The position numbers and the translations under genes were made by a program. A stretch of DNA of 49,107 nt from a virus (taxonomy: Duplodnaviria; Heunggongvirae; Uroviricota; Caudoviricetes), in IMG/VR virus record IMGVR_UViG_2563366861_000002; one strand, 5' to 3'. Below the pieces are notes generated by a model. That model did not search any database. It saw only the letters and a list, made by a program, of their open reading frames with translations, and was not told where the DNA came from. Positions 4,417-47,773 of the stretch are shown here, piece after piece. Within the stretch, counting starts at the first letter, position 1; the number at the start of each line of letters is the position of its first letter.

Positions 4417-4873
4417 TGTTTTTGGTTTTAACTGTTCCGCGTGCGCTCAGCCGCATTCACCACATCACAAAATTCACTTTAAAAAGGGCGGCAGAGCAGT
4501 CACGGAGTAAAACTGATACCGCCAAACGTCACCAGAAAATTGATAACAGAGGGCGTTGCAGCGGGGTTGTCACTTAAGCGTATGGTCAACCTGACAACCC
4601 GGTGTCCTCAACGGGGGAAGGAATAACCCCGCCATACTTACCGCCGCGCCATTTCGCGGATTGCCACAACCGGAAGCGCACGGTCGACGAAAATTTAACG
4701 ACAGGCTATCTATGAACCAGCTACCTCGCCGTGCGCTTTCGCGTTATGGTCTGACTTTTCAGGGAAATATCCTTTCAGTAAACTGTCAGTGCCGGATGCT
4801 CACCCGTGTCCGGCGCACGCACTCCACCTCACCCGTGGAGAACTCCTTAATCACCAACCCTCAGGAGGGTGAA

Positions 4874-9723: not shown

Positions 9724-10064
9724 CGACTTTTACCAGAGAGCAGTTAATAGCTCACGCAGAGGAGACTATTGAAGCACAGAGACTGTGCATACCGGGCACA
9801 ATCGACCATGACATCATCCGCACATATAAGATGGATATTGCTGTTCTGGAAATCGCACTGGTATCGCTGGCAGCAGAGCCAGCCGGTAAATTGCATGAAT
9901 ACAAACCAGTGGGATATCAGCGTCTGGTCGATGAGTTAACCATGCTGGTAAAGCAGTTAACCTGGCAACTGAGGAAAGCGAAGCCAGACTGCAAATTACC
10001 GGATAAGGCGATGAGTTATCTGGAGCGGAACGGACTGATAAGCGTGGAGGATATTTTACGATGA
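9720..10064 (+). CDS. hypothetical protein
   Basis: 114-aa ORF, translationally coupled to neighbours. Confidence 0.6.
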
Positions 10065-10144
10065 CCTGGCCTGAAGCATTAACAACGGTAGGAATTGCGA
10101 TGGCGGTGGCGCTGGTGGTGTATTCGATTTGCCGCTGGGGATAA
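10061..10144 (+). CDS. possible 27-aa hydrophobic peptide
   Basis: ATG overlaps preceding stop (ATGA); [27 protein letters not shown] is a single TM-like helix; very short, speculative. Confidence 0.3.
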
Positions 10145-10355
10145 AAACGGTTTGCGGGAAAAGGAGAGTTAAGTAGAATTGCAGCGGGTGCTTGAGGCTA
10201 TCTGTCTCAGGCATGAACACCAAAAGGCAGATAGAGAAAAGCCCCAGTTAACATTACGCGTCCGGCAAGACGCTTAACATTAATCTGAGGCCATATCTAT
10301 GCTCTACACACGTAGGTTAGCCTCTTACGTGCCGAAAGGCAAGGAGAAGCAGGCT

Positions 10356-10511
10356 ATGAAGCAGCAAAAGGCGATGCTAATCGCCCTGATCGTCATCTGT
10401 TTAACCGTCATTGTGACGGCACTGGTAACGAGGAAAGACCTCTGCGAGGTACGAATCCGAACCGGCCAGACGGAGGTCGCTGTCTTCACAGCTTACGAAC
10501 CTGAGGAGTAA
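10356..10511 (+). CDS. Hok/Gef-family type I toxin (small membrane toxin)
   Basis: MKQQKAMLIALIVICLTVIVTALVTRKDLCEVRIRTGQTEVAVFTAYEPEE matches Hok/Gef family signature (TM helix + LTRKxLCE...EVAxFxAYE); in-frame upstream ATG at 10299. Confidence 0.8.
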   Translation: MKQQKAMLIALIVICLTVIVTALVTRKDLCEVRIRTGQTEVAVFTAYEPEE

Positions 10512-10580
10512 GAGACCTGGCGGGGGAGAAATCCCTCGCCACCTCTGATGTGTCAGGCATCCTCAACGCACCCGCACTTA

Positions 10581-10610
10581 ACCCGCTTCGGCGGGTTTTG
10601 TTCTTTTTGT
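10581..10610 (+). terminator. rho-independent terminator
   Basis: CCCGCTTCGGCGGG hairpin followed by TTTTGTTCTTTTT; identical hairpin recurs at 11937-11966. Confidence 0.7.
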
Positions 10611-10755
10611 GAAAAAAATTCCCTTAAAGGAGATTTTTTTAACTAAAAAGGTTTACTTTGCTTTCGTATATGGTAAATTTTAGGAATTAGAATTTAAGCG
10701 CCCATCAGGCTTGCGTTAGGCAAGTCTGCTAAATCAACAAATTGAGGATAAAATC

Positions 10756-11115
10756 ATGGCACTCACTGAATTCGGTAAGGCCGTTAGAAAAGCGAGGATC
10801 GATACTGACAGTACTCTTCTGACTATGTCTCAAGAACTGGGCACTACGCCAGCGTTTCTTAGCGGTTTAGAAACTGGTAGCAAAAAAATACCTCTGAAGT
10901 GGGTTAAGAAGATTGATTCTTACTTCAAGGCCAAAGGTGTAGAAATTGAAGGGTTACAGGAGCTAGCGGCAGTTGCGAATGACTCAGTTCCAGTAAACGG
11001 TTTGTCTCAGCAACAGAAAATGCTTGTAGCGGGATTCGCTAAGTCGCAGTTTACGCCGGAACAGCTAAAGAGTTTTGCAGATTTATTGCAAAAGATTAAT
11101 AACAATGAGGGGTAA
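10756..11115 (+). CDS. XRE-family HTH transcriptional regulator
   Basis: 119-aa ORF; HTH (STLLTMSQELGTTPAFLSGLETG); GAGGA RBS; own promoter-like AT-rich upstream region. Confidence 0.8.
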   Translation: MALTEFGKAVRKARIDTDSTLLTMSQELGTTPAFLSGLETGSKKIPLKWVKKIDSYFKAKGVEIEGLQELAAVANDSVPVNGLSQQQKMLVAGFAKSQFTPEQLKSFADLLQKINNNEG

Positions 11116-11117
11116 TT

Positions 11118-11594
11118 ATGTATCAAATGAGAGGTAACAGGGTGTCACCGATGCAAGAAGAAGAAATAGCCTACAGAGCTATAAACTTCTGTAATGCTAT
11201 TGGTCTTACAGCCTCAAAGCGCAAAAGAAAGCGTTATGATATGTTCTTTGAAAGCCTGTCAATTTATGGGGTTACTCTTGACGTCAGGACCGACAAAGAG
11301 TGGGAGGCTCTGACGTATGATCTAACTATCGGACATTGTGACCCCGCTTCTCTAACAATTACGGTTCCCAATAAAATATATGTGAATGCTTGCCTTGGGG
11401 AAGAGCATGCACTTGCTGTTATCTTCCACGAGCTAGGTCATTTGCTTCTTGGACACAAAGCAGTTTTACACTTTTCAGTTAAAGAACCTACTCGTATTGA
11501 GGATGCAGAATGGCAGGCAGATACATTTGCGGATATCGTACTGGAAACAATTGGCGTGAGAACACAACAGATGTCGTTCGATTTTTATATGTAA
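11118..11594 (+). CDS. ImmA/IrrE-family zinc metallopeptidase
   Basis: 158-aa ORF with HExxH motif (HELGHLLLGH) typical of ImmA/IrrE (COG2856-like) peptidases; immediately downstream of XRE gene. Confidence 0.8.
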   Translation: MYQMRGNRVSPMQEEEIAYRAINFCNAIGLTASKRKRKRYDMFFESLSIYGVTLDVRTDKEWEALTYDLTIGHCDPASLTITVPNKIYVNACLGEEHALAVIFHELGHLLLGHKAVLHFSVKEPTRIEDAEWQADTFADIVLETIGVRTQQMSFDFYM

Positions 11595-11620
11595 AAGCCC
11601 TGCGCTAACAGGGCTTTTAG
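11594..11620 (+). terminator. rho-independent terminator
   Basis: AAAAGCCCTG-cgctaa-CAGGGCTTTT hairpin directly after ImmA stop. Confidence 0.6.
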
Positions 11621-11761
11621 GGACGGAAAGTGCGCTAACACATTCCGTAGTGTATGGAGATAATCCAATCACAACACTTTTTGTAGACAAGCGAAGTGTA
11701 GTGGTTCTCCCAACAAAGTGCAACCTGTGTGGATTCACAGGTGAGCAGGGAAAACGAAATC

Positions 11762-11911
11762 ATGGCAATGGGTACCTGTCGCAAATGTGGCTGTCCATGT
11801 GAGATCATTTTTCGCTACTCTGTGTGTGTAGATGGTGTAATGCGCCACGCGAAAAAAGGGAAGCCTTTCCCGATCCCACTTTGCAGTTGTAGTGGCAAGC
11901 ACGCAGCTTGA
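11762..11911 (+). CDS. hypothetical Cys-rich small protein
   Basis: 49 aa with 7 Cys (CRKCGCPCE...CSCSG), possible metal-binding; ATG within the 60-aa track ORF. Confidence 0.4.
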   Translation: MAMGTCRKCGCPCEIIFRYSVCVDGVMRHAKKGKPFPIPLCSCSGKHAA

Positions 11912-11936
11912 TATTCAGTACTGACAAAACCCGCTT

Positions 11937-11966
11937 CGGCGGGTTTTGTTTTTTCTTGGCATTCAG
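11937..11966 (+). terminator. rho-independent terminator (copy of 10581-10610 hairpin)
   Basis: AAACCCGCTTCGGCGGGTTTTGTTTTTTC. Confidence 0.7.
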
Positions 11967-12026: not shown

Positions 12027-12305
12027 ATGGCGCACAATACCAAATCACACAATTCTGATAATTCAGCTGTCTTTGCCAGCAGGCACGGGCGGCGTTCCCG
12101 CACATTCAAATCTGATTGGTACCAGCATCCCCCATGTACTGAAGAACAAGCTGAATGGCTAATTCAGTGCTACCGCAGACACGGATACGAGATTAAGAAA
12201 GCCCTCAGCCTCGATTATCGTCACTGGATAATCTCCGTCAGGCTTCCTTACTCTGAACGCCCACCGCGTCCGTCCCGCACATTCCAGCAACGCATCTGGA
12301 GGTAA
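12027..12305 (+). CDS. hypothetical protein
   Basis: Internal ATG (MAHNTKSH...) of 119-aa ORF; 92 aa; basic. Confidence 0.5.
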   Translation: MAHNTKSHNSDNSAVFASRHGRRSRTFKSDWYQHPPCTEEQAEWLIQCYRRHGYEIKKALSLDYRHWIISVRLPYSERPPRPSRTFQQRIWR

Positions 12306-16231: not shown

Positions 16232-16307
16232 GGCCCTTTAGCTCAGTGGTGAGAGCGAGCGACTCATAATCGCCAGGTCGCTGGTTCAAATCCAGCAAGG
16301 GCCACCA
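16232..16307 (+). tRNA. tRNA-Ile (anticodon CAT, ileX-like)
   Basis: 76-nt cloverleaf GGCCCTT...AAGGGCC-A-CCA; anticodon loop CTCATAA; near-identical to E. coli tRNA-Ile2 as I recall it. Confidence 0.85.
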
Positions 16308-16316
16308 TATCACATA

Positions 16317-16393
16317 CCACCATTAGCTCATCGGGATAGAGCGCCAGCCTTCGAAGCTGGTTGCGCGGGGTTCGAGTTCTCGATGGCGGTCCA
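16317..16393 (+). tRNA. tRNA-Arg (anticodon TCG), imperfect stems
   Basis: D-arm GCTC-ATCGGGATA-GAGC, anticodon stem CCAGC/GCTGG with loop CTTCGAA, T-loop TTCGAGT, 3' CCA; one acceptor mismatch and wobble-rich T-stem. Confidence 0.55.
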
Positions 16394-16644: not shown

Positions 16645-16848
16645 TGATGATTGTCTGGCTGCCGGAGAATTTGTTAAAAATTACATCGCATGGTGAATCC
16701 CCCTCAGCGGCGGGGCATCTGGCAAAGTGTATGATCCAGAGAACATGCAAATTCAGTAGACAGGCTGAATTTACCGGGAGGCCCCTGGCACCATGCGACA
16801 GACAGAAATTAGGCTATACTTCAGCCCCTCTCCGGAGGGGCTTTTCTG
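16645..16848 (+). ncRNA. candidate structured small RNA / small transcription unit, copy A
   Basis: Promoter-like TTGTCT-17-TAAAAA, conserved GCATGGTG...CACCATGC segments, GC hairpin, and terminator AGCCCCTC-TCCG-GAGGGGCT + TTTTCTG; paralog at 17115-17308. Confidence 0.35.
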
Positions 16849-17114
16849 TGCAGGATGTGTCACAGTTTCCTGAATTCTGAGTACTGTCCTGTTACTCAGG
16901 GTGCTATATTTTCTGACGTGATGAAAGTCTGCCGGAAGGCGGAACGTATCGGAAATGACCCAGTAGAGAAAACGTTGACTCAGATACCGATGCTGAGTTA
17001 CCGGGAAACCGGCATCACATGACCGCTATCCTTCCAGGCTCGCTCCGGCGGGCCTTTTTACTGCAGAAAACAGTTTTCCCGTAAAATGCCACGTTGCTCA
17101 TAATTCAGGCTGGC

Positions 17115-17308
17115 GATTATTGTCTGGCCGGCGGGAAGTTTGTTAAAAAATTTCGCATGGTGAATCCCCCTGTGCGGAGGGGTAATCAGCGAGTAGGTAT
17201 ATGGGATAATCGCGGATTCAGGTGCTGGTACTGAATTCACCGGGAGGCACCCGGCACCATGCAATGGCACATAGCGCCACTCTCCAGCCCCTCTCCGGAG
17301 GGGCTGTT
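17115..17308 (+). ncRNA. candidate structured small RNA / small transcription unit, copy B
   Basis: Same architecture as copy A; internal hairpin differs by compensatory changes (CCCCTCAGCGGCGGGG vs CCCCCTGTGCGGAGGGG). Confidence 0.35.
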
Positions 17309-17340
17309 TATATTGATTTTGTCAGATGTGAGTAAACTCC

Positions 17341-47189: not shown

Positions 47190-47773
47190 TGGCATTCAGA
47201 ATGAGTGAACAAGCACGGACCATAAAAATTTATAATCTGCTGGCCGGAACTAATGAATTTATTGGTGAAGGTGACGCATATATTCCGCCTCATACAGGTC
47301 TGCCAGCAAACAGTACCGATATTGCACCACCAGATATTCCTGCTGGCTTTGTGGCTGTTTTCAACAGTGATGAGGCATCGTGGCATCTCGTTGAAGACCA
47401 TCGGGGTAAAACGGTTTATGACGTAGCGTCAGGGGACGAGTTATTTATTTCTGAACTCGGTCCGTTACCGGAAAATGTTACCTGGTTATCGCCGGAAGGG
47501 GAGTTTCAGAAGTGGAACGGCACAGCCTGGGTGAAGGATACGGAAGCAGAAAAAATGTTCCGGATCCGGGAGGCGGAAGAAACAAAAAACAACCTGATGC
47601 AGGTAGCCAGTGAGCATATTGCGCCGCTTCAGGATGCTGCAGATCTGGAAATTGCAACGGAGGAAGAAACCTCATTGCTGGAAGCCTGGAAAAAGTATCG
47701 GGTGTTGCTGAACCGTGTTGATACATCAACTGCACCTGATATTGAGTGGCCTACGAACCCTGTCAGGGAGTAA
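47189..47773 (+). CDS. tfa: tail fiber assembly protein Tfa
   Basis: 194 aa; [17 protein letters not shown]... matches lambda Tfa; start overlaps stf stop. Confidence 0.85.

Follow-up and report, generated by a model that had tools for sequence, protein, structure and literature searches.

Genes and regulatory elements of the hok locus

The window examined here, a 49,107-nt stretch of DNA from an IMG/VR record of a virus of the Caudoviricetes (IMGVR_UViG_2563366861_000002), contains at 10299–10511 an open reading frame (ORF) with an internal ATG at 10356, from which a Hok/Gef membrane toxin of 51 aa is encoded. Both the 70-aa and the 51-aa forms matched the Pfam family HOK_GEF (PF01848), at E = 2.9e-23 and 1.2e-23, respectively, with scores of 82–83 (82.9 bits for the 51-aa form, against a cut-off of 22 bits), and the 51-aa Hok also matched PHROG 251, “MokW-like host killing” (E = 2.8e-33). 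The protein is identical to HokD (RelF) of Escherichia coli K-12 at 51 of 51 residues and to HokW at 47 of 51 (92%), and in identical chromosomal copies the gene is named hokD by PGAP. The toxicity of K-12 HokD/RelF, the same protein, we take to be established. A preliminary description of this DNA had recognised a 51-aa Hok/Gef toxin with an in-frame upstream start at 10299, a long leader and a strong terminator in a nin-like region, and all of these features were borne out, at a level far above chance: the ORF and its internal ATG carry the family matches given above, the leader matches Rfam RF01794 at 117 bits, a hairpin and T-run lie at 10580–10606, and the cassette sits between the replication genes and Q of a lambdoid prophage, for which “nin-like” is a fair description. 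The interval 10150–10610 extends almost exactly from promoter to terminator, and the elements placed in it are as follows.

10152–10179, plus strand: predicted hok/mok promoter, with a −35 TTGCGG (10152–10157), a 16-nt spacer and a −10 TAGAAT (10174–10179), read from the sequence.
10186–10605, plus strand: putative full-length hok/mok mRNA, about 420 nt long, running from GGGUGC as far as the U-tract of the terminator, its 5′ end placed by position 1 of RF01794 and its 3′ end by the terminator.
10186–10197, plus strand: tac (translational activator element), GGGUGCUUGAGG, pairing with 10561–10573 in the full-length minimum free energy (MFE) fold and with 10239–10245 in the Rfam consensus; invariant or covarying in 37 relatives.
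10237–10307, minus strand: putative Sok antisense RNA of about 71 nt, consisting of a 5′ tail, a long hairpin and a U-tract; coordinates transferred by alignment from the misc_RNA sokW of 933W.
10239–10245, plus strand: ucb, or anti-Shine-Dalgarno element, AAGCCCC; its partner in the closed form is the mok Shine-Dalgarno (SD) sequence, and in the open form tac.
10287–10290, plus strand: mok SD sequence GAGG, 8 nt upstream of mok; invariant in 67 close and 37 diverse relatives.
10299–10511, plus strand: mok, the leader ORF of 70 codons, which shares the frame of hok (a 19-codon N-terminal extension), laid out as in the annotated mokW and mokC.
10314–10342, minus strand: predicted Sok promoter, with a −35 TTGCCT (10342 to 10337), a 17-nt spacer and a −10 TAACCT (10319 to 10314), read from the sequence and conserved across relatives.
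10343–10346, plus strand: hok SD sequence GGAG, inside AAGGAGAAG, read from the sequence; CAAGGAG is nearly invariant in relatives.
10356–10511, plus strand: hok, encoding the 51-aa toxin.
10519–10540, plus strand: GC-rich hairpin GGCGGGGGAG-AAAU-CCCUCGCC directly 3′ of the stop codon, present in all folds and conserved across genera.
10561–10573, plus strand: fbi (fold-back inhibitory element), CCUCAACGCACCC, pairing with tac over 12 base pairs that leave one C bulged.
10580–10606, plus strand: intrinsic terminator of the hok mRNA, hairpin AACCCGCTTCGGCGGGTT followed by a T-run, found by a terminator scan; the same 27 nt are repeated at 11928–11954.

Within hok, the Tyr47 codon lies in a TACGAA hexamer (10494–10499) that was invariant in 37/37 aligned relatives. 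TACG is the context of TadA-dependent A-to-I editing reported for hokB and also for hokC/D/E (preprint 10.1101/2025.08.07.668861). The hexamer is thus a possible editing site, at which editing, if it occurs, would recode Tyr to Cys near the Hok C-terminus.

The hok mRNA and its predicted tac/fbi/ucb switch

The −10 hexamer of the predicted hok promoter, which is conserved in 933W and Rac and reads TATAAT in K-12 hokC, is separated by 6 nt from the start of the Rfam match downstream. Neither this promoter nor that of Sok was flagged by a consensus promoter scan (the hok −35 agrees at only 3/6 positions, and the Sok promoter fell below threshold); after that scan, both were placed by homology and with the help of a published mutation of the sokW −10. 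The sole match that the scan returned, at 10274–10303 on the plus strand, was at chance level (1 found, 1.3 expected) and was discarded.

The leader at 10186–10361 (about 170–176 nt) matched RF01794 with E = 2.5e-27, its 117 bits standing against a gathering score of 59. Although this model is named “sok antitoxin,” it matches the sense strand, running from the first base of the hok mRNA leader to the hok AUG, and not the antisense Sok, so that annotation pipelines using RF01794 put “sok” on the wrong strand and with the wrong length. Folding of the full-length mRNA gave an MFE of −173.2 kcal/mol (z = −6.4 vs. shuffled sequences). The hairpin directly 3′ of the hok stop codon is likely to be the stem-loop that protects the 3′ end of the processed mRNA, as judged by analogy with R1, in which the mRNA loses stability when the last stem-loop of Tr-hok is mutated (PMC9841398). 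A match to isrK on the hok 3′ UTR (27 bits vs. a gathering score of 50), which consisted mostly of the terminator, was rejected.

In the full-length MFE, which corresponds to the closed form, nt 1–12 of the mRNA pair with 10561–10573, and the GCCCC box at 10241–10245 (C57–C60) pairs with the mok SD region. Folding the leader for a long-range tac–fbi pairing, as had been suggested beforehand, thus yielded a 12-bp helix, and this helix is retained with compensatory changes in relatives of five genera: 11–12 of its 12 pairs are kept in 37 sequences representing 15 tac/fbi combinations. For the inner six pairs, 99.5% of cells were paired, vs. 20–60% when the partner was slid by 1–3 columns. A double compensatory change, U4-A to C4-G, occurs in 11 sequences; most of the inner six pairs never vary, and the covariation consists of this kind of evidence from one pair there together with G12-C to A12-U changes.

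The alternative, open pairing of tac with ucb is present in the consensus structure of RF01794. In the unconstrained MFE of the 3′-trimmed mRNA, a 5′ hairpin formed instead of the tac–ucb stem, and we therefore assessed the open form by constrained energies. Forcing tac to pair with ucb costs 13 kcal/mol while fbi is present but only 0.5–2 kcal/mol after 3′ trimming, so that with fbi removed the open conformer is nearly isoenergetic with the MFE. Because the unconstrained MFE does not choose the open form, the opening step in the trimmed RNA is one that we infer from R1.

The antisense Sok

A search of the minus strand for a Sok promoter and terminator, also suggested in the preliminary description, identified TTGCCT and TAACCT hexamers followed by a hairpin and U-tract, these being matches at the level of sequence. 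The predicted Sok fold comprises a hairpin of 23 base pairs, then GGGGCUUUU (z = −4.9), and is preceded by a 5′ tail that is predicted to be single-stranded and is complementary to the mok AUG and its flanking bases. The hairpin is about 18 nt longer than that of sokC, and the extension is common to the 933W, Rac and Kluyvera copies. Published work on sokW bears on the same positions: TAGGTTA (10313–10319) equals the heptamer replaced in the “promoter-less” sokW construct of Takada et al., as deduced from primers YO-421/422 (PMC8621323), and a northern probe covering the equivalent of 10279–10308 detected sokW (PMC8621323). By homology, we consider an antisense Sok gene to be present here. The suggested checks that can be made in silico, for the Sok promoter and terminator and for tac–fbi pairing, all agreed with the classical model, and the Sok/mok-type control named in the preliminary description is supported.

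An in-frame mok is the norm in this clade

The preliminary description had also proposed that, with mok in frame with hok, the regulatory architecture may differ from the classical one. This does not hold, as both mokW/hokW of 933W and mokC/hokC of K-12 are annotated with the same 19-codon extension: in the reference annotations, each pair has a common stop codon and starts 57 nt apart. We compared the mok start with that of hok in 37 relatives, which are non-identical loci from six genera (Escherichia, Kluyvera, Pseudocitrobacter, Citrobacter, Photorhabdus and Pantoea), and found it in frame at −57 in 26, at −58 in eight and at −56 in two, with one lacking an ATG. A second survey took in 84 sequences, 73 of them distinct, whose Hok is the same or almost so; they comprise the window itself, 78 loci from IMG/VR and five reference loci with annotation. 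Here too most mok starts were at −57, with one group at −56, phage Rac at −58 and three relBE-hokD fusions without a leader. Counts of intact ORFs among the IMG/VR loci are biased, those loci having been selected for 100% Hok identity, and we did not use them as evidence of selection.

Every leader-bearing relative has its mok start 56–58 nt ahead of that of hok, and all three frames are represented. Indels of 1 nt in the stretch from the mok AUG to the hok SD flip the frame (in phage Rac, L003, in loci L094/L095 and in L008-type loci) in DNA that is otherwise 94–95% identical, and the frame-flipped relatives keep hok and its own SD intact and encode the same 51-aa Hok. At −58, as in phage Rac, mok would give a 68-aa out-of-frame product; at −56 it is an ORF of 19 aa whose stop codon overlaps the hok ATG as ATGA. 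This overlap in the −56 variants is the classic layout of termination–reinitiation.

One could read the in-frame arrangement as a sign that the locus works unlike classical hok/sok, the 70-aa protein being the real product or hok being an internal start used without coupling. The layout with exactly 19 upstream codons does predominate in the clade (26/37), and translation of mok necessarily yields an N-terminally extended Hok. However, the extended protein changes with the frame in the −56 and −58 relatives while hok and its own SD are conserved, the N-terminal codons of mok are the most variable part of the locus, and in mokC and mokW the in-frame layout is already the reference annotation. 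We consider this reading very improbable, and the 70-aa product was rejected as the real toxin on the ground that the frame varies among near-identical relatives. For R1, what is reported to matter is that mok be translated as far as the start site of hok, and not the Mok product (PMC9841398). The free drift of the mok frame among the relatives supports the same view here, namely that only the act of translating mok would matter. An in-frame mok is, then, the norm in the HokC/HokD/HokW clade, which corrects the misconception that it is a departure.

A hypervariable patch at the Sok 5′ tail

Within the leader, variation is highest in a patch at 10292–10313 around the invariant mok AUG, with an entropy of 0.76 bits vs. 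0.17 in the rest. It occurs in 17–18 haplotypes, with a median of eight differences vs. 2–3 in control segments, and leader-bearing copies within one genome differ in patch haplotype (Shigella flexneri SFBU1023 and E. coli ECMA0423). These 22–27 nt encode the single-stranded 5′ recognition tail of the predicted Sok and are saturated with substitutions, whereas the rest of the cassette is 94–100% conserved. Relaxed constraint could account for the patch neutrally, as the least constrained stretch of the locus. A more speculative reading, which we put forward tentatively and regard as possible but less than probable, is that hok cassettes of prophages sharing a host have, through diversifying selection or shuffling of alleles, Sok antitoxins that are orthogonal to one another. 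If so, each prophage in a polylysogen would keep a private trigger for addiction or lysis.

Distribution and genomic setting

At least 16 complete E. coli chromosomes contain the 471-bp query at 100% identity, with the gene named hokD by PGAP. Of 5,426 complete E. coli genomes, 4,938 contained similar DNA, at 12,272 sites in all and with a median copy number of two. Related cassettes occur in 102 phage records, including 933W, VT2-Sakai/Sp5 and other Stx phages, and are called mokW/hokW/sokW there. A published survey reports a roughly four-fold enrichment of hok genes in prophages (preprint 10.1101/2025.08.07.668861). Homology to relatives extends from about 10139–10178 to about 10600–10608; these sharp ends mark a discrete module of about 440 bp. 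PADLOC contained no model matching Hok.

On one side, the cassette is flanked by phage replication-type genes, and on the other by DUF968/HNH, RusA and Q-like antiterminator genes. It is co-directional with the early-right genes, and the terminator scan detected no terminator between these and hok. Immediately upstream, a 27-aa hydrophobic ORF (10061–10144) begins in an ATGA that overlaps the stop codon of a 114-aa gene, with 8 nt separating its end from the hok −35; its sequence is also found upstream of hokW in Sp5, within primer YO-432 (PMC8621323). Pfam assigned no family to the flanking 27-aa and 114-aa ORFs or to a helix-turn-helix (HTH) protein encoded downstream.

The terminator duplication is direct, the two 27-nt copies (10580–10606 and 11928–11954) being identical at 26/27 positions. 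The 1.3–1.35 kb between them (10607–11954) encodes the HTH protein (10756–11115) and an ImmA/IrrE M78 metallopeptidase (11118–11594) with weak CapH/CapP-like matches. In 28 of 80 IMG/VR relatives this insert is absent and the hok terminator continues directly into 11928 onward; other complete loci have no window-like sequence directly after the hok terminator, and the HTH/ImmA insert is common only to L020 and the FDAARGOS_536 chromosome. The site at the shared hok terminator therefore looks like a candidate hot spot of cargo exchange.

Elsewhere in the window, Rfam matches above gathering scores were obtained for DicF (4486–4537, minus strand), STnc100 twice (16658–16851 and 17127–17315, plus strand) and IS009 (47532–47730, plus strand), which are typical small-RNA cargo of Qin/Rac-like lambdoid prophages. 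Two tRNA genes lie downstream of a DNA methyltransferase gene and upstream of the late region, one at 16232–16307 with anticodon CAT (Met according to ARAGORN, Ile in a related PGAP annotation) and one at 16317–16393 (Arg-TCG); the related FDAARGOS_536 prophage has three tRNAs there.

Comparison with known hok systems

The closest characterised system is hokW/mokW/sokW of 933W and Sp5, which is 93.6% identical to the window in DNA over 434 bp and has the same 70-aa in-frame mok, 51-aa hok, extended Sok hairpin and Sok promoter hexamers. The two differ at four residues of the Hok C-terminus (TAYEPEE in the window versus VDYESEK in HokW) and at 7 of 22 nt in the patch at the mok start and Sok 5′ tail. 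In addition, 933W lacks the downstream CCCGCTTCGGCGGG terminator, and its cassette lies near the end of the record, whereas that of the window lies between the replication genes and Q. [quoted passage not shown] At this locus Sok is reported to be lost after treatment with mitomycin C, HokW to be produced in a RecA-dependent manner and to reside in the inner membrane, and phage release to be two-fold higher with the locus than without it.

K-12 hokD (relF), in the Qin cryptic prophage, encodes the identical Hok, with the same 3′ UTR, fbi and terminator as in the window and a neighbourhood of the same nin type, but has no leader, mok or sok: relBE replaces everything upstream of about 10342, whereas the window keeps the complete regulatory region. 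The hokC (gef)/mokC/sokC locus has the in-frame 19-codon mok extension, tac, ucb, mok SD and Sok arrangement of the window, with a Hok that is 82% identical; it differs in its 18-nt shorter Sok hairpin and chromosomal location, and its K-12 copy is disrupted downstream by IS186.

The hok/mok/sok (parB) locus of plasmid R1 has the same elements as the window, with a GAGG mok SD at the same place, a 70-codon mok and the same tac/fbi/ucb logic (PMC9841398). The mok AUG is at nt 114 in the window and nt 116 in R1, and the hok AUG at nt 171 and nt 174, respectively (PMC9841398). In plasmids of the R1 type, mok is out of frame, offset by 97 nt in an annotated plasmid copy and by 58 nt according to the R1 positions (PMC9841398), while in the window it is in frame. 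HokW, which is 47/51 identical to the window Hok, shares 44% identity with R1 Hok, and R1 hok/sok is a plasmid stability locus, whereas the cassette in the window is a prophage moron. Processing at the mRNA 3′ end, RNase III cleavage of the Sok–mRNA duplex and the differential stability of the two RNAs have been shown for R1 (PMC9841398), and in part for hokW-sokW.

Identity, proposed mechanism and likely role of the cassette

We conclude with high confidence that the locus is an intact hok/mok/sok type I toxin–antitoxin cassette of the HokD/HokW subgroup, forming a self-contained moron of about 440 bp in a lambdoid E. coli prophage. It might instead be a decayed relic like the K-12 chromosomal hok loci, with little or no transcription and no effect on prophage or host. 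K-12 hokC has IS186 directly downstream and no fbi match (L099), in K-12 hokD relBE has taken the place of the entire leader, degenerate copies exist among the relatives (L127 and L131), and tests for post-segregational killing failed for chromosomal hok loci, those of hokA/B/C being reported not to mediate it (summarised in preprint 10.1101/2025.08.07.668861). A homolog is also labelled “RelF inactive” in some phage records. Against decay, all elements required in R1 are present in the window and in register (−10, tac, ucb, mok SD and AUG, hok SD and ORF, 3′ hairpin, fbi, terminator, and Sok promoter and terminator), dozens of prophages keep the cassette at 94–100% identity with boundaries that are sharp at promoter and terminator, and the close relative hokW-sokW is functional. 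We consider a relic unlikely.

If the R1 model is applied to this cassette, the weak promoter at 10152–10179 would give rise to a stable mRNA of about 420 nt, in which the 5′ tac is clamped to the 3′ fbi. In this closed form, ucb would sequester the mok ribosome-binding site, and there would be no translation. Slow 3′ trimming would then remove fbi, allowing tac to pair with ucb and exposing the mok start region. In the lysogen, the short-lived Sok (10307 to 10237) would bind via its 5′ tail and block translation of mok and of the coupled hok, and the duplex would be degraded. Once synthesis of Sok stops, mok would be translated and the hok start opened, and the 51-aa Hok would enter the inner membrane and kill or lyse the cell.

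In the prophage, the cassette most likely assists lysis on induction or brings it forward, by analogy with what was measured for hokW-sokW of Sp5; retention of the prophage and abortive infection are possible alternatives. The Sp5 cassette lies at a different phage position, and its role may not transfer to the copy in the window. Since the early-right genes are co-directional with hok and no terminator was detected before it, we speculate that read-through on induction could disturb the convergent Sok promoter.

The locus is already known: thousands of E. coli genomes and phages have it annotated as hokD or as hokW/mokW/sokW, and it lies here in a typical place. The way it works is a textbook paradigm, and experiments have already characterised a near-identical copy from a prophage, so we attach little weight to it as a discovery. 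What is useful is the element-by-element map of an intact copy, and the hypervariable Sok tail and the cargo hot spot at the hok terminator may serve as seeds for small studies.
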